A stretch of 64,000 nt of DNA, from sequence record PZ386948.1, one strand, 5' to 3'. Positions within the stretch are counted from its first letter, which is position 1. Every line of letters begins with the position of its first letter. This document shows, in pieces, positions 36,017 through 47,735 of this stretch. Origin of the DNA: a phage. Made by a program: the position numbers and the translations under genes. Below the pieces are notes generated by a model. It had not been told where the DNA came from. It worked only from the letters and a program-made list of their open reading frames with translations, and did no database searches.

Positions 36017-36433
36017 TTAAATGTAAATATTTTTGCCGTAATACTTATACCAGTGTGGCTTCATTAAAATTTTTTCATCGAGTCGTTGTTGACTCAACTT
36101 AATAGCTGATTTGCATGGATTATAATCATTTTTCCATTCTACTGGAATATCGCTGATGTCAGGAACTTCAGTATCTTTTATACTGAACCCGCGTTTTAAG
36201 CATTCCGTTATAATGTCCGATTGACGCTTTCGCAAAAATTCTAACTTATCGTAAAAGAAAGTAACATGACCAGAACCTAAAATAAATTTAGAAGATATTT
36301 TAAAATCTTTAACGCGCTTACCGTTTGCCACATGCTTACGAACTATACCAAAAACACGCGGCAATTCACGGTATTCTGCGATTAAATGTTGATCAGCAAG
36401 TTCAGATACTAAAGTCAAATTAATACGAGTCAT
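36017..36433 (-). CDS. denV: endonuclease V (pyrimidine-dimer DNA glycosylase)
   Basis: 138 aa [28 protein letters not shown]... matches remembered T4 DenV. Confidence 0.9.
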
Positions 36434-36492
36434 TTTATCCCTCCAAGTAACTGTGAATATACTATCACAATTCTAGGAGAAAGTAAACAACT

Positions 36493-37023
<531 letters not shown>

Positions 37024-41920: not shown

Positions 41921-41996
41921 TGGTCGAGGCAGTAGGGATCGAACCTACGACCTAGGACTTAGAAGGTCCTTGCTCTTCCTTCTGAGCTATGCCCCG
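41921..41996 (-). tRNA. tRNA-Arg (anticodon UCU)
   Basis: Minus-strand cloverleaf read by eye: anticodon arm AGGAC-CUUCUAA-GUCCU, T-arm GUAGG-UUCGAUC-CCUAC, encoded CCA. Confidence 0.8.
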
Positions 41997-42000
41997 TAAT

Positions 42001-42087
42001 TGGGGTGACCGATGGGAGTCGAACCACCCGAGTCGCAATGACAATGGATTTACAGTCCACACCGCTACCTCTACGGGATAACTCCCC
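42001..42087 (-). other. tRNA-like element, non-canonical (possible degenerate tRNA or small stable RNA)
   Basis: Has GGUUCGA T-loop-like motif, anticodon-like arm with GUA in loop and 3' CCA, but acceptor and T stems do not pair canonically by eye. Confidence 0.3.
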
Positions 42088-42100
42088 TTAATTCTTAATT

Positions 42101-42175
42101 TGGTGGCCCTGGGTGGAATTGAACCACCATCTGGCGATTATGAGTCGCTTGCTTGAACCTTCCAGCTACAGGGCC
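42101..42175 (-). tRNA. tRNA with CAU anticodon (Ile2-type or Met)
   Basis: Acceptor GGCCCUG/CAGGGCC, anticodon loop CUCAUAA, T-loop UUCAAUU, CCA encoded. Confidence 0.8.
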
Positions 42176-42176
42176 T

Positions 42177-42252
42177 TGGTGCTGATTGACGGAATCGAAC
42201 CGCCGACCTTCTCATTACAAGTGAGTTGCTCTACCTACTGAGCTAAATCAGC
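42177..42252 (-). tRNA. tRNA-Thr (anticodon UGU)
   Basis: Acceptor GCUGAUU/AAUCAGC, anticodon loop CUUGUAA, T-arm GGCGGUUCGAUUCCGUC. Confidence 0.8.
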
Positions 42253-42257
42253 AAAAC

Positions 42258-42347
42258 TGGCGGAGGCGATAGGATTTGAACCTATGAGTCGCCGGAGCGA
42301 CTGCCGGTTTTCAAGACCGGTGCATTAAACCACTCTGCCACGCCTCC
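42258..42347 (-). tRNA. tRNA-Ser (anticodon UGA)
   Basis: 90 nt type-II tRNA; reverse complement matches remembered T4 tRNA-Ser (GGAGGCGUGGCAGAGUGG...). Confidence 0.9.
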
Positions 42348-42353
42348 AAATAT

Positions 42354-43004
42354 TTATATATTGTTAATTTGATTTAGAATTCTTTTTGCTTGAGTATGAC
42401 TTACGCCAATATGCTTAGCATATTTAGACAATTCGCCACGTTTAGAAAAATCATATAATTTAGAAATTTCTATTCTTCTTTTTCTTTCATCCGCAGAAAC
42501 TTTTGCTTCGTTTGCTTTTGCTATTTTACGTTTAGCTTCTTGAGAATGAGTTTTACCAGCAAAGCCATTCTTCATTAATCCATTTGAAGACCATCCTTTT
42601 AATTTTCCGTTAGAATGTGCCTTTTTAACACCCAATGAAATTAATTCGCGTTGCTGATCTGTCATAGGATAATTATTTATATGATCCCATCCACCTTCAC
42701 CTCCAAGTTTTAAATTATACACATCTGGTCTATTTAAAAACTCTTCTGTGACAATATTTTTCTCGGCTTCAAGCATAGATTCTTTATCGTCAAAATACTC
42801 TAATATTTCTTTAGAAAAATTTTCTATACCATATTTATCTTGGGCTCTTTTTAATAATTTACCAGAACCCATATATCCATCATCTAAATTTTCGGTAGAA
42901 TGCACACCAATATAAATTTTATTATTAATTTTATTTGTTATTTTATAAAGATAAAAATGCATATCAGTCCCTAATAAAGAACTGAGCGTCTCACGACGAG
43001 TCAT
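42354..43004 (-). CDS. GIY-YIG homing endonuclease (SegB-like)
   Basis: 216 aa; GIY-YIG core YLYKITNKINNKIYIGV; C-terminal HTH-like tail; embedded between tRNA-Ser and tRNA-Gly. Confidence 0.75.
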   Translation of the reverse strand: MTRRETLSSLLGTDMHFYLYKITNKINNKIYIGVHSTENLDDGYMGSGKLLKRAQDKYGIENFSKEILEYFDDKESMLEAEKNIVTEEFLNRPDVYNLKLGGEGGWDHINNYPMTDQQRELISLGVKKAHSNGKLKGWSSNGLMKNGFAGKTHSQEAKRKIAKANEAKVSADERKRRIEISKLYDFSKRGELSKYAKHIGVSHTQAKRILNQINNI

Positions 43005-43008
43005 AAAT

Positions 43009-43082
<74 letters not shown>

Positions 43083-43087
43083 AAATT

Positions 43088-43174
43088 TGGTGCGAGAAGT
43101 GGGACTCGAACCCACAAGGAAATCATTCCGCAGCATTTTAAGTGCTGTGCCTTTACCAATTTGACCATTCTCGC
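43088..43174 (-). tRNA. tRNA-Leu (anticodon UAA)
   Basis: 87 nt type-II tRNA; reverse complement matches remembered T4 tRNA-Leu (GCGAGAAUGGUCAAAUUGG...). Confidence 0.9.
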
Positions 43175-43180
43175 GCTATA

Positions 43181-43813
43181 TTATTTATTACGTGAAAAAG
43201 ACTGTTCTATCAATTCTGGACACTTTCGTTCTATCCATTTTCTAGCTTTTTGTGGGCTTATACCTATTATTTTAGCAGCTTTACTAACCCATCCAAATTT
43301 AGAATAATCGATTTTAACTAATTCTTCGTAAATTTCATCAGTTAAAATCTTTTCATTAATATTTACCAGTAAATGATATAATTTATTATCATTAGCAATT
43401 TTAATGAATCTTTTATAGTTTCCGCCTTTACTTAAACCTAATGAAGTAATTGCAGATGATATAGTAGCCGAATTTAATAGTGCGTTTAAAATTTCTTCAT
43501 CACTAACATTATAACGCTTTTTATTATTTTTAATATTTTTACCAGCAAAAGTATCAGTTTGCGAATGGCAGTTTGGACATAATAATCTTAAATTTGATTT
43601 AAGATGATTTTTGTTATTTCCATCAATATGGTCTAATTGCAGAACAATATGCTTATTTTGCCATTTTGAAATTTTACAAATTGCACACTCATATGGAAAA
43701 ATATTTTCTTTTATTATTTTGTCTTTCAGCTTTCCTGTACTAAAATTTGGATGTTTTCCTTCAAAAATTTCAGCTAATTTAGTATCCATAATATGATTCC
43801 CAATTATTAACAA
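43181..43813 (-). CDS. HNH homing endonuclease with zinc-finger and C-terminal HTH-like tail
   Basis: 210 aa; CAIC...HIDGNNKNH...NLRLLCPNCH; abuts tRNA-Leu. Confidence 0.7.
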   Translation of the reverse strand: MLIIGNHIMDTKLAEIFEGKHPNFSTGKLKDKIIKENIFPYECAICKISKWQNKHIVLQLDHIDGNNKNHLKSNLRLLCPNCHSQTDTFAGKNIKNNKKRYNVSDEEILNALLNSATISSAITSLGLSKGGNYKRFIKIANDNKLYHLLVNINEKILTDEIYEELVKIDYSKFGWVSKAAKIIGISPQKARKWIERKCPELIEQSFSRNK

Positions 43814-44696: not shown

Positions 44697-45116
44697 TCAG
44701 CCTTCATCAACAATAGTATGAGTGTGGGCATTTACAATTTGCCACCAATCAAAGCGATTAGAACCACACATCGGTTTGTTTTCATTTTCTTTGATAATAT
44801 CACGAAGTTCATCTTCGGTAGCGGCTTTCGCGATTAAATCAGCATATCCACCGCGAGGATAATAATTATCACCTGCAAAAAGTAAAAAGTTCGGTTTAAT
44901 ATTATTGAACTCTTCAAGAGTAATAACTTTTCCTGTCGGTTGAACAATCTCTACATATTTATATCCTAATTTTTGAGCAGCATCTACTGCTTCAAGCAAA
45001 GTATCATGAGCCCATCCAATTTGACAACCTGGCTTTTCAGATGGATTAGCCTGATAATCCGCGTACACTTTATACATTCTATTCACCTTTAGAAATTTTA
45101 TCCATAACGATAGCAA
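44697..45116 (-). CDS. hypothetical protein
   Basis: 139 aa ORF; probable internal start. Confidence 0.4.
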   Translation of the reverse strand: MLSLWIKFLKVNRMYKVYADYQANPSEKPGCQIGWAHDTLLEAVDAAQKLGYKYVEIVQPTGKVITLEEFNNIKPNFLLFAGDNYYPRGGYADLIAKAATEDELRDIIKENENKPMCGSNRFDWWQIVNAHTHTIVDEG

Positions 45117-45264
45117 TTAAACCAATTAAAAATGCTACTACAAGTGAAAAAACATTTTCTGCTGTAGTTAATAATCCGCATATAAATCCAACAAACATTG
45201 AAAAACTAAAAGCAGAAGCAGAAATTGCAATAGCAACATTTCGAATTAATTCACAACGTTTCAT
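45079..45264 (-). CDS. small membrane protein
   Basis: Start set at MKRCELI; hydrophobic; preceded by promoter repeat. Confidence 0.4.
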   Translation of the reverse strand: MKRCELIRNVAIAISASAFSFSMFVGFICGLLTTAENVFSLVVAFLIGLIAIVMDKISKGE

Positions 45265-45292
45265 TTTATTCTCCTCAGTAGCTGATAGGGTA

Positions 45293-45322
45293 ATAGTATC
45301 ACTACTAAAACCCAATGTAAAC
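45293..45322 (-). promoter_or_regulatory. early-type promoter repeat for small membrane ORF 45079-45264
   Basis: Same repeat unit. Confidence 0.5.
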
Positions 45323-45325
45323 AAT

Positions 45326-45550
45326 TTATTCAACGCCAGCGGCTTTCAAAAGTTTCTTAAGATTGGCAACACCTTGAGCAGAAAATGTGACCTTGCCACC
45401 TTTTTCACTGATAGAACCAACCAATTTAGCAAGTTTATCATTAGGAATTTTTTTAAAATCAGCCAATGTTCCATCAAAGGTTTTTGAAACAAAAGGCAGT
45501 TCGTCTTCGCGTCTTTTAGCTTCTACAATAAATTCTTGATATGTTTTCAT
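45326..45550 (-). CDS. internal-protein-like (capsid-targeting N-terminus)
   Basis: Start MKTYQEFIVEA... equals T-even IP targeting sequence consensus; preceded by promoter repeat. Confidence 0.65.
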   Translation of the reverse strand: MKTYQEFIVEAKRREDELPFVSKTFDGTLADFKKIPNDKLAKLVGSISEKGGKVTFSAQGVANLKKLLKAAGVE

Positions 45551-45586
45551 TTTAGTTTCCATTTGAGTGTTTGTTTTGATAGGGTA

Positions 45587-45616
45587 ATAGTATCACTACT
45601 AAAACCCAATGTAAAC
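45587..45616 (-). promoter_or_regulatory. early-type promoter repeat (GTTTACA-17-TACTAT) for IP-like gene 45326-45550
   Basis: Minus-strand GTTTAC/TTTACA then 17 nt then TGxTACTAT; same ~55-bp unit repeated at 45293, 45953, 46283. Confidence 0.55.
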
Positions 45617-45634
45617 AACTTTGTGAAAAATTTA

Positions 45635-45922
45635 TTACAAAAGATTTTTAGCAATAATCTTGAGATGTGCCGCAGAAATGTGTTTAGCTTTAAACAACGC
45701 AGTTTCTTCAGCAGGAGAGATAACGATTGTAGCACCATCCTTTTTAGCAGACCACCCATCGCCTAGGTAAACAGTACCTTTGATTTCTTCGCCATCAACC
45801 AGACTAATCATTGGTTTACCTTCTCGTCCTTTATTTGCTTTAATAACTTCAGAAGTAAGAGTAGCTTCGGTAATAGTAGAAACCGGGGTAGTTGTAGAAG
45901 TAAATTCTTTGAAAGTTTTCAT
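45635..45922 (-). CDS. internal-protein-like (capsid-targeting N-terminus)
   Basis: 95 aa; MKTFKEFTSTTTPVSTITEA...; preceded by promoter repeat. Confidence 0.6.
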   Translation of the reverse strand: MKTFKEFTSTTTPVSTITEATLTSEVIKANKGREGKPMISLVDGEEIKGTVYLGDGWSAKKDGATIVISPAEETALFKAKHISAAHLKIIAKNLL

Positions 45923-45952
45923 TTTATTTTCCTAATTAATTTTGATAGGGTA

Positions 45953-45982
45953 ATAGTATCACAACTAAAACCCTATGTAAAC
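45953..45982 (-). promoter_or_regulatory. early-type promoter repeat for IP-like gene 45635-45922
   Basis: Same repeat unit. Confidence 0.55.
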
Positions 45983-45994
45983 AACTTTGTGAAA

Positions 45995-46252
45995 TTATTT
46001 TAAATCTTCTAATCGTTTCTTCATCTTAGAACCGTTCTTAGCGATTTCGCCTGCATCAGAGCATAATGCTAAAAGCGCTTTAACTTTAGTTTGGTCTCCT
46101 TTAAAAGATGAAGGATCAACAGCAGCAGCAAGTTCTTTAATACGAGAGAAAAGACGCTCAGCTTCAGCTAAAGCCATTCCAAGCTTTACTTCCATACCGC
46201 GGGAAGATTCAGTAATAGTAGTTTTTGTAGCAAACTCTTTGAAAGTTTTCAT
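45995..46252 (-). CDS. internal-protein-like (capsid-targeting N-terminus)
   Basis: 85 aa; MKTFKEFATKTTITES...; preceded by promoter repeat. Confidence 0.6.
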   Translation of the reverse strand: MKTFKEFATKTTITESSRGMEVKLGMALAEAERLFSRIKELAAAVDPSSFKGDQTKVKALLALCSDAGEIAKNGSKMKKRLEDLK

Positions 46253-46282
46253 TTTATTTTCCTAATTAATTTTGATGAGGTA

Positions 46283-46312
46283 ATAGTATCACTACCTCAT
46301 CAGTATGTAAAC
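46283..46312 (-). promoter_or_regulatory. early-type promoter repeat for IP-like gene 45995-46252
   Basis: Same repeat unit. Confidence 0.55.
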
Positions 46313-46324
46313 AACTTTGTGAAA

Positions 46325-47009
<685 letters not shown>

Positions 47010-47010
<1 letters not shown>

Positions 47011-47735
47011 TATAGTACCTTTAGTGTATTTTTAATTTTAGAAAAAAGTTCTTCAAGAGAACCATCGTTTGTAATTACTAAATCGCCATCACGAATTGGC
47101 AATCCAGCTTCTGTAATATGTGTATCATTGGATTTTTGACCAGGACGAACTACATGAATTACTGTAGCACCCATCGCCCTAGCCGCATCCATTTCATGAT
47201 CTTGACGGGTATCAGGAACGATATAATAATCATAACCTGAGTTAAATTTATCAAGATAATCTAAAGCAAATAATTTTACCCAGTACATGCGGTCGAAGTT
47301 ATTAACAATCAAATCCGTACCTAGGGCTTGCATCAGACGACGGACTGACCATTGATCTTCAATATTATTTATAACGTCAATAATCTTGTTAAATGCTACG
47401 GAATTAACTGATTCTTGTCCTTCGTCATCAAAAACAAACACACCCTTAATTGGGCTTTTACCGTTAAGATAGCAAAATGCTTGTTCCATAATCGTGATTA
47501 CTTCTGATTTAGTCAGATTTAAATTAGTCTCACGATCATAGTCAATTCCTTCAAACTCTTTACGAGTTAAGCAAGGATAGTCAGTGTTTGCTGCAAATAC
47601 TCCCCATGCATAAGCCAATGCATCCTTAATAGGACCAGCAAGTTGGTATTTAACTGCAGAATAATTGCTCATGATAAAATCAGCAGTAGTATCTTTTCCA
47701 CTACGCTTTACACCGCTTAAAAAGATTAGTTTCAT
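47010..47735 (-). CDS. 1: deoxynucleoside monophosphate kinase gp1
   Basis: Start set at MKLIFLSGVKRSGKDT (P-loop) giving 241 aa as T4 gp1. Confidence 0.85.

Follow-up and report, generated by a model that had tools for sequence, protein, structure and literature searches.

Internal proteins (IPs) of T4 and its relatives are regarded as diverse defence proteins that share only the capsid-targeting sequence (CTS) (PMC3012670), and reading them as anti-defence factors is the published consensus (PMC3012670, PMC9026906, PMC12373910). The function of the CTS and the processing by gp21 have been described (PMC9026906 and PMC5694885). T4 IPI*—the mature form of IPI—is an inhibitor of the GmrS/GmrD type IV restriction enzyme (PMC3012670; PMC12373910), and Silas et al. 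2025 report that each of Ip1, Ip2, and Ip3 blocks a different GmrSD, with T4 IPII and IPIII inhibiting GmrSD-ECOR21 and GmrSD-ECOR17 (PMC12373910). Promoter/stem-loop elements at both IP loci were, by the account given of them in PMC2839356 and PMC4122927, first seen by Repoila 1994. Arbiol et al. 2010 describe these T-even elements as analogues, not homologues, of the PeSLs, built on T4 early promoters and bearing weaker AT-rich stems without polyG/polyC (PMC2839356).

Here, we describe an array of three IP genes within a 64,000-nucleotide stretch of phage DNA, referred to as the window. We read it, with a probability of roughly 0.88, as the hyperplastic ipI locus of CM8 or of a Tequatrovirus nearly identical to it, carrying three IP cassettes. 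The type of locus is already known—a tandem IP array was published in 1994—and the window holds nothing new in kind.

The internal-protein genes between 57B and tRNA.4

The three genes lie at the ipI locus in the order Ip5, ipI, Ip8, all on the minus strand. Upstream, the locus is bounded by 57B (46325..46783, minus strand)—a label which this gene also bears in the CM8, RB14, and T4 annotations—whose product is an Acb1-family anti-CBASS phosphodiesterase (Pfam Acb1, E=7.5e-60). The downstream boundary is formed by a homologue of tRNA.4 (45079..45264, minus strand; phrog_1692, E=6e-35) in the position of T4 trna.4, encoding a hydrophobic, predicted membrane protein of 61 aa that lacks a CTS. 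The gene order 57A-57B-(IP genes)-tRNA.4-tRNA.3-tRNA.2 is collinear with T4, RB14, and SA21RB. Over 15 kb, the window is 100% identical to Shigella phage CM8 (Tequatrovirus), whose record contains a 974-bp duplication—one end of it inside 57B—that is absent from the window, and the exact Ip5-ipI-Ip8 combination occurs only in CM8 and T4_ev240 among 50,697 phage records. A six-frame scan of the window returned no CTS genes beyond these three, and the CM8 record annotates, outside the window, gp21 protease, gp22 scaffold protein, and gp68. Of the features that define internal proteins, CTS, protease site, IP locus, and, in the CM8 record, gp21 and core genes are found. An earlier note on this DNA had located three minus-strand genes that begin with MKTFKEF or MKTYQEF followed by a Glu-Ala/Ser site, and had taken them for CTS cassettes at the T4 ipI locus with an early promoter each: the genes are indeed there, and collinearity and family matches support this placement.

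The middle gene, ipI (45635..45922, minus strand), encodes a 95-aa precursor that starts with MKTFKEFTSTTTPVSTITE/AT—the slash marking the cleavage site—with a 19-residue propeptide and the 76-aa IPI* as mature protein. The product is identical to T4 IPI in 95/95 aa, matches Pfam IPI_T4 (PF11634) with E=7.3e-54 and 180 bits vs a curated cut-off of 25, and is over residues 20-95 100% identical to PDB 2JUB, the solved structure of IPI*. Since the mature part equals 2JUB and T4 IPI, its target would be the GmrS/GmrD of E. coli CT596, and by analogy with the identical T4 protein it probably inhibits this two-subunit enzyme. The earlier note had ipI replaced by three different cargoes of unknown specificity; this does not hold, as the middle gene is ipI itself.

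Upstream of ipI lies Ip5 (45995..46252, minus strand), whose 85-aa precursor starts with MKTFKEFATKTTITE/SS and bears a 15-residue propeptide (MKTFKEFATKTTITE/S), leaving a predicted mature protein of 70 aa with a pI of 9.5. It matches phrog_3499 'internal head protein' (E=1.2e-48) and is identical to RB15 Ip5 (GenBank Z35082) at 84/85 positions; the T2 and RB70 homologues carry the name Ip5 (UniProt Q38378 'Ip5'), and our literature search found no paper on Ip5. Downstream of ipI, Ip8 (45326..45550, minus strand) encodes a 74-aa precursor starting with MKTYQEFIVE/AK, with a 10-residue CTS (MKTYQEFIVE/A) and a predicted mature protein of 64 aa and pI 9.8. Ip8 matches phrog_8765 'internal virion protein' (E=2e-25), shares 72/74 residues with RB15 Ip8 (GenBank Z35082), and is present in 108 phage records from Escherichia, Klebsiella, Salmonella, and Citrobacter phages. 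A profile HMM of the Ip8 family run against 1.84 billion representatives recovered its own cluster, fragments, and weak matches to giant repetitive proteins only, and no significant Pfam family was found for Ip5, Ip8, or tRNA.4.

Alignment of the N-termini with T4 IPI, IPII, and IPIII—a check proposed in the earlier note—bears out their similarity to known targeting sequences: the CTS of Ip8 is of the IPII/IPIII type, matching it at 9/10 positions, and the leaders of Ip5 and IpI, which start with MKTFKEF, are of the T4 IPI type. Judged by the gp21 cleavage consensus taken from the literature (PMC9026906), the sites that would end the propeptides are ITE/S in Ip5, ITE/A in IpI, and IVE/A in Ip8, that is, Ile-x-Glu followed by a small residue. 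Ile-x-Glu/Ala or Ser is invariant across family members with a varying x position; ITE/SS is invariant in the Ip5 family alignment, and I8, E10, and A11 are in that of Ip8. Among the 39 distinct CTS ORFs found next to 57B in 29 loci, 35 bear hydrophobic-x-E at positions 8-10, and the remaining four, all Ip5 or IpI, bear ITE at residue 15 or 19. The mature parts are basic (pI 9.0-9.8), as in T4 IPI-III, and BLASTP finds no pairwise similarity among those of Ip5, IpI, and Ip8, in agreement with the initial impression that these domains are unrelated.

By these features, Ip5 and Ip8 would both belong to the CTS-bearing, gp21-processed internal proteins. Phage records label them internal head or virion proteins; these names rest on sequence, and no report of either protein in virions, cleaved or ejected, was found in the literature. 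It might be argued that both are early cytoplasmic proteins with vestigial remnants of a CTS, which are neither packaged nor ejected: early promoters drive the two genes, no late-promoter motif lies directly upstream, and the literature search gave no proteomic evidence for them. However, the promoter of T4 ipI is arranged in the same way, yet the ipI product is packaged. Late transcripts could come, by read-through into the array, from a late-promoter motif (TATAAATA, 47366..47373, minus strand) inside gene 1, which precedes 57A-57B and the IP genes; SA21RB carries a late-promoter annotation at the equivalent site. Moreover, CTS and Ile-x-Glu are invariant even among family members of as little as 72% identity, in contrast to the variable residues around them. 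We consider a vestigial CTS very improbable.

Promoter/hairpin units and probable cassette exchange

A 45-nt unit is present in four copies on the minus strand, upstream of tRNA.4 (unit 4, 45283..45327), Ip8 (unit 3, 45577..45621), ipI (unit 2, 45943..45987), and Ip5 (unit 1, 46273..46317), with 100, 98, 93, and 78% identity to the reference copy, respectively. This confirms an element recognized beforehand, namely a repeated unit with GTTTACA-17-TACTAT before each gene and the membrane ORF. In unit 1, the promoter GTTTACA-N-TGATACTAT spans 46283-46312, and a 13-bp hairpin at 46273-46302 (dG -17.4 kcal/mol, z -4.7) encloses the -10 box; by alignment, this unit does not differ from the one that precedes ipI in T4, and its identity of only 78% is due to a differing hairpin stem. 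Promoter and hairpin lie at 45953-45982 and 45945-45976 (z -3.2) in unit 2, at 45587-45616 and 45582-45607 (z -3.0) in unit 3, and at 45293-45322 and 45288-45313 in unit 4, with an identical 40-nt core in units 3 and 4. For the three IP genes, the repeat reaches 123 nt—comprising promoter, ribosome-binding site (RBS), and first codons—and the unit before the tRNA.4 homologue is without the TTTCACAAAG leader.

Every unit carries TTTACA-17-TACTAT with an upstream TG, and GTTTACA-N14-GTGATACTAT is found in 4/4 units. A search of the window for the T4 early-promoter pattern GTTTAC-N14-16-TGNTANNNT gave 14 matches, none of them on the plus strand, compared with an average of 0.13 in shuffles; four of these 14 matches fall within the 1.03-kb array. 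With GTTTAC, a spacing of ~14-15 nt, and an extended -10 of the gtggTAttaT type, the four units appear to fit the T4 early promoter class, and the SA21RB annotation lists the equivalent elements as T4 early promoters. The stems of the hairpins are AT-rich with dG values of -13 to -17 kcal/mol, no U-run follows them, and no intrinsic terminator was called. Hence, the hairpins are at most putative transcriptional elements, and the label 'promoter-terminator' was dropped for these units.

In comparison with T4, RB14, and RB15, the boundaries of exchange lie inside the repeated unit and the CTS codons. At the ipI-to-tRNA.4 junction of T4 and RB14, the left half of unit 3 continues into the right half of unit 4—hence, direct repeats flank the Ip8 cassette of 294 bp. 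Homology between the window and RB15 stops 27 nt into the coding sequence of the next cassette, and 17 different cargo families are found at this position in 29 loci, with 0-3 genes per phage. As read from the sequence, each cassette comprises a T4-type early promoter with an overlapping hairpin, an RBS of the AGGAAA type, the CTS codons, and an unrelated small basic cargo. Unit and CTS codons flank each cargo on either side with 45-125 bp of homology, through which co-infecting relatives, or the units within a single genome, could recombine and thereby add, delete, or swap cassettes, a step which the junction comparison supports; that it takes place at the units is suggested by the genome comparison.

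Alternatively, the units might be ordinary early promoters that are alike through local tandem duplication, with an incidental hairpin and no part as recombination substrates. The inner part of the stem (TAGTA/TACTA) does fall in the conserved extended -10 sequence itself, and the 974-bp duplication of the CM8 record has one end in 57B and not at a unit; other rearrangement routes therefore operate here as well. Nevertheless, the T4/RB14 junction is exactly the crossover product of units 3 and 4, the RB15 homology breaks within the unit-plus-CTS segment, and the hairpin is kept in each unit type though the outer stems differ (GATGAGG/CCTCATC vs ATAGGG/CCCTAT). The unrelated cargo domains argue against simple gene duplication, and recombination is also the published interpretation (PMC2839356; PMC4122927). 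An origin of the likeness in duplication alone thus seems quite unlikely, and we favour exchange of cassettes at the units.

Possible roles of Ip5 and Ip8

In the proposed mechanism, the CTS would bind the precursors to the prohead scaffolding core—as has been shown for T4 IPIII—and the gp21 prohead protease would cut after Ile-x-Glu, at E15 in Ip5, E19 in IpI, and E10 in Ip8. For IpI, the cut at E19 is counted as shown, given that maturation of the identical T4 protein yields the 76-aa IPI* with A20 as its first residue; for Ip5 and Ip8, the invariant motif points to it. The mature proteins would stay with the packaged DNA and be ejected into the next host, where IPI* would block GmrS/GmrD—a glucosyl-hmC-specific type IV restriction enzyme—as shown in T4, and where Ip5 and Ip8 would most likely counter further host defences that target T-even DNA. 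The suggestion of the earlier note that these are candidate injected anti-defence proteins agrees with the published view; Ip5 and Ip8 are, however, no new candidates, having been named in 1994 (Z35082).

Structure prediction, likewise proposed beforehand, gave AlphaFold2 models of a helical hairpin for Ip5 (pLDDT 72) and of a small alpha/beta fold for Ip8 (pLDDT 69), and their Foldseek matches added nothing on function. Against the PDB, Ip5 matched designed helical hairpins only (E > 0.6) and Ip8 had no match with E < 0.05; against viral models, Ip8 found its own family only. IPI* (2JUB) is missing from the structural matches of Ip8, and there is hence no sign of Ip8 being a diverged IPI.

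Silas et al. 2025 assayed ip4-10 against a GmrSD panel with no reproducible inhibition, and an apparent signal of ip8 with CLS_018/019 failed to repeat (PMC12373910); for this reason, we do not claim Ip5 and Ip8 as GmrSD inhibitors. Neither T2 nor T6 escapes restriction by GmrSD-ECOR21 and GmrSD-ECOR17 (PMC12373910), and since T2 carries Ip5, the natural dose of this protein does not overcome those two enzymes. Our tentative reading, to which we give somewhat less than even odds, is that Ip5 and Ip8 are injected inhibitors of defences beyond the GmrSD variants so far assayed, for example, of other enzymes attacking hydroxymethylcytosine-DNA.

Both proteins might instead be packaged as generic basic, DNA-associated head proteins—acting through charge or in packaging and ejection—with no specific host target. 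Small and basic mature proteins (pI 9.5 for Ip5 and 9.8 for Ip8) would suit such a role, as would the plain hairpin predicted for Ip5, matched by designed hairpins only, and the lack of a reproducible GmrSD target for ip4-10 (PMC12373910). Yet a generic role leaves it unexplained why 17 unrelated cargo families share one position with 0-3 genes per phage, and all three T4 IPs have specific, non-overlapping GmrSD targets (PMC12373910). Furthermore, the second IP locus can be wholly empty, as in this phage: T4 has ipIII and ipII between e and denV, and the window has none, bearing between lysozyme e (36493-36987) and denV (36017-36433) a solo early-promoter unit (36459..36488, minus strand) that aligns with the T4 e-to-ipIII unit. 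Bulk IP content is therefore dispensable, and a generic role appears unlikely.

With the ipII/ipIII locus empty, the three-gene array would be the whole injected counter-defence kit of this phage. If Ip5 and Ip8 are such inhibitors, the phage would offer a clean background for finding their targets; as a corollary, it should resist CT596-type GmrS/GmrD and be sensitive to ECOR21-type and ECOR17-type GmrSD. The IP content—ipI, Ip5, and Ip8, with no Ip2/Ip3 locus—would hereby predict which type IV systems are overcome and which are not, and such predictions bear on the choice of therapeutic T4-like phages. Ip5 and Ip8 are common and are reasonable candidates for screens against wild hosts, and the locus is a textbook case of a virus with pre-made injectable counter-defence proteins in swappable cassettes.

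Comparison with known loci

The array shares with the T4 ipI locus the position between 57B and tRNA.4, the flanking promoter/hairpin units, and an identical IPI protein. Where T4 has a single cassette, the window has three, ipI being preceded by Ip5 and followed by Ip8; RB14 differs by having Ip5 and ipI only. RB15 (Z35082; Repoila, Tetart, Bouet & Krisch, EMBO J 1994), with the order 57B-Ip5-Ip9-Ip7-Ip8-tRNA.4, likewise bears tandem CTS cassettes and the same repeated units, five in number, so placed that each of its four genes is preceded by one, and has the outer Ip5 and Ip8 in common with the window, but Ip9 and Ip7 fill the middle of its array in place of ipI. T4 IPII and IPIII resemble the proteins described here in their CTS (MKTYQEFIAE vs MKTYQEFIVE in Ip8) and their small basic mature proteins, and their units are of an analogous GTTTAC...TGTGAT promoter/inverted-repeat type, whereas the mature domains show no sequence similarity.

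The PeSLs of RB49/phi1 and other T4-like phages are similar in that a promoter and a stem-loop are repeated between small non-essential genes of a hyperplastic region and supply short homologies for gene insertion, deletion, and replacement (Arbiol et al. 2010; Comeau et al. 2014). A PeSL proper combines a sigma70-consensus promoter with a GC-rich GGGG...CCCC terminating stem-loop, to which the AT-rich stems of the array, with no terminator call, do not correspond. As in PeSLs, the repeats in the window flank small accessory genes and coincide with boundaries of insertion, deletion, or replacement at the junctions vs T4, RB14, and RB15, and the units of the array fit the description that Arbiol et al. 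give of the T-even IP elements.

Internal-protein genes at the ipI locus

The array of genes and repeats is confirmed and lies far above chance. All four short minus-strand ORFs that the earlier note had described within 45079–46322 are present, and in the order of transcription these are Ip5 (45995–46252, 85 aa), ipI (45635–45922, 95 aa), Ip8 (45326–45550, 74 aa), and tRNA.4 (45079–45264)—the last encoding a hydrophobic protein of 61 aa without a leader of the capsid-targeting type. Over 15 kb, the window matches the Tequatrovirus CM8, a Shigella phage, at 100% identity. Its gene order—gene 3, gene 1, 57A, 57B, internal-protein (IP) genes, tRNA.4, tRNA.3, tRNA.2, tRNA cluster—is common to T4, RB14, and SA21RB, and, hence, the array sits at the ipI locus of T4. 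The kind of locus had thus been recognized rightly as a set of IP cassettes bearing capsid-targeting sequences (CTSs) at this position.

The one factual point where the earlier note went wrong was in taking all three genes as unknown replacements of ipI. The middle gene equals T4 IPI in 95 of 95 residues, matches Pfam IPI_T4 (E=7.3e-54), and is in residues 20–95 100% identical to the solved structure of mature IPI (IPI*, 2JUB); it is ipI itself and no replacement. The first gene belongs to phrog_3499 ("internal head protein") and is Ip5, as its T2 and RB70 homologues are named, while the third, Ip8, belongs to phrog_8765 ("internal virion protein") and is encoded in 108 phage records, mostly of Klebsiella and Escherichia phages; in several of these records the gene is labeled ip8 or internal virion protein. 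Both names trace to GenBank Z35082, "Bacteriophage RB15 DNA for Ip5, Ip9, Ip7, Ip8", and identity to the RB15 proteins amounts to 84/85 residues for Ip5 and 72/74 for Ip8. The predicted mature Ip5, IpI, and Ip8 comprise 70, 76, and 64 aa with pI values of 9.5, 9.0, and 9.8—a range of 9.0–9.8 compared with 9.0–9.7 for T4 IPI–III. BLASTP finds no pairwise similarity among the three post-cleavage parts, in line with the view that the mature domains are mutually unrelated.

The 5' neighbor of the array, 57B (46325–46783, minus strand), encodes an Acb1-family anti-CBASS enzyme (2H phosphodiesterase; Pfam E=7.5e-60), which places the IP array directly downstream of another counter-defense gene; RefSeq phage records name it "RNA ligase" despite this match. 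The tRNA cluster (41921–43813, minus strand) holds only six tRNAs (Arg, Met, Thr, Ser, Gly, and Leu) versus eight in T4, and contains two homing-endonuclease ORFs, one SegB-like (42354–43004, flanked by tRNA-Ser and tRNA-Gly) and one of the HNH type (43181–43813, just upstream of tRNA-Leu). The deposited CM8 genome bears a 974-bp tandem duplication that is single-copy in the window (45564–46537 vs NC_054939 1527–3474), spanning the C-terminal half of 57B, Ip5, IpI, and one promoter unit. Its two copies differ at eight positions, the window corresponds to CM8 minus copy 1, and one of its ends falls within 57B rather than at a repeat unit; the duplication may be genuine, a subpopulation variant, or an artefact of assembly.

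At the second IP locus, lysozyme e (36493–36987) directly precedes denV (36017–36433) on the minus strand, and the 59-bp gap holds a solo early-promoter unit (36459–36488) like the T4 unit 5' of ipIII. Since this locus is otherwise empty, the phage is without Ip2 and Ip3 equivalents there, and Ip5, IpI, and Ip8 account for all small CTS proteins that the window encodes.

Predicted targeting signals and proposed anti-restriction role

Set against the T4 IPs, the N-termini bear out the proposed targeting signals: the Ip8 leader MKTYQEFIVE (followed by AK) differs at one position from the 10-residue CTS of IPII and IPIII, MKTYQEFIAE, while the Ip5 leader MKTFKEFATKTTITE (followed by SS) is of the longer IPI type; that of IpI in the window reads MKTFKEFTSTTTPVSTITE (followed by AT). 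A review of work on the T4 head assigns CTS residues 4 and 7 to targeting and residues 8 and 10 to processing by the prohead protease gp21 (PMC9026906). Within the Ip8 family I8, E10, and A11 are invariant and residue 9 is V, T, A, or N; within the Ip5 family ITE followed by SS is invariant and holds even in one member with a leader shortened by five residues. We surveyed the 57B-coding strand of 29 loci (25 IMG/VR loci encoding 57B, T4, RB14, SA21RB, and the window), which yielded 45 CTS ORFs (39 distinct sequences), the majority directly 3' of 57B. Hydrophobic-x-E occupies positions 8–10 in 35 of the 39, with A, S, or T as the usual next residue; the remaining four, which belong to Ip5 or IpI, have their ITE at residue 15 or 19. 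The CM8 genome encodes gp21 and the scaffold proteins. Processing of IpI at A20 is proven through the identical T4 protein, and Ip5 and Ip8 would be cleaved at their predicted sites.

That diverse IPs are injected defense-blockers with only the CTS in common is published consensus (PMC3012670, PMC9026906). T4 Ip1, Ip2, and Ip3 each block a single type IV restriction enzyme of the GmrSD family, different in each case and without cross-protection (Silas et al. 2025, PMC12373910). The question of the Ip5 and Ip8 targets has been probed experimentally once already: for ip4–10, an apparent interaction of ip8 with CLS_018/019 was not reproducible (Supplementary Figure 9 of that study). Moreover, T2 carries Ip5 yet is restricted by both GmrSD-ECOR21 and GmrSD-ECOR17 (PMC12373910), so that Ip5 at its natural dose fails against these two enzymes. 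Predicted models show a two-helix hairpin for Ip5 (pLDDT 72) and a small alpha/beta domain for Ip8 (pLDDT 69), neither with an informative structural match, and a search of 1.84 billion representatives returned no Ip8-family relatives beyond its own cluster.

Repeated promoter/hairpin units

As had been claimed, a copy of a repeated promoter unit precedes each of the four ORFs. The 45-nt copies at 45283–45327, 45577–45621, 45943–45987, and 46273–46317 (units 4, 3, 2, and 1, 5' of tRNA.4, Ip8, ipI, and Ip5) show 100, 98, 93, and 78% identity to the reference copy; the first two share a 40-nt core without mismatch, and at the three leader-bearing genes the repeat reaches 123 nt, taking in ribosome-binding site and first codons. 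Every unit carries TTTACA-17-TACTAT with TG upstream. The T4 early-promoter pattern GTTTAC-N14-16-TGNTANNNT matches 14 times in the 64-kb window (shuffles average 0.13), all on the minus strand within 13536–46312, and 4/14 fall inside the 1.03-kb array. This strand bias fits a single long early-transcribed region.

Folding places the −10 box of each unit inside a hairpin, with dG values of −17.4, −14.6, −15.2, and −13.2 kcal/mol for units 1–4 (z −4.7, −3.2, −3.0, and −1.2 vs shuffles). The outer stems vary by unit type (GATGAGG/CCTCATC vs ATAGGG/CCCTAT), the hairpin being present in all. No U-run follows the hairpins and no terminator is called on the units, and terminator function is therefore not claimed. 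Elements of exactly this kind were described by Arbiol et al. 2010, who cite Repoila et al.

The ribosome-binding site of tRNA.4 (45265–45282, minus strand) contains GGAG, the target motif of the RegB endoribonuclease, while those of Ip5 (46253–46272) and ipI (45923–45942), both AGGAAA on the same strand, and of Ip8 (45551–45562) are without it. The missing motif might spare IP mRNAs from early-mRNA inactivation, although this is no general rule, as RB15 Ip9 has GGAG. Ip8 has the weaker TGGAAA, and here an in-frame upstream ATG (METK-MKTYQEF..., 45551–45562, minus strand) sits where the other cassettes have AGGAAA; database annotations start at MKT.

Inferred cassette exchange

The 29 loci carry 0–3 CTS genes between 57B and tRNA.4, drawn from 17 unrelated cargo families, of which Ip8 is the commonest (7/29 loci). 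Among 50,697 phage records, the exact Ip5–ipI–Ip8 combination occurs only in CM8 (two records) and T4_ev240. The set is rare, yet it is a new mixture of known parts and not a new kind—genes, names, targeting signal, promoter/hairpin units, cassette shuffling, and the anti-restriction hypothesis are all already known.

Comparison with T4, RB14, and RB15 provides evidence for this shuffling. The T4 unit 5' of ipI is identical to unit 1 of the window, and that 5' of tRNA.4 closely matches units 2–4. The ipI–tRNA.4 junction of T4 and RB14 consists of the left half of unit 3 and the right half of unit 4; hence, the 294-bp Ip8 cassette has a direct repeat on either side, and what T4 shows corresponds to the crossover product. 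In RB15 (Z35082), four tandem IP genes are annotated between the 57B end and the tRNA.4 start, and five copies of the promoter unit are found. Homology to the window runs from 57B across Ip5 and unit 2, breaks off after the first 27 nt of the coding sequence that follows, and returns in the unit before Ip8—leaving a nonhomologous middle of ipI in the window versus Ip9 and Ip7 in RB15.
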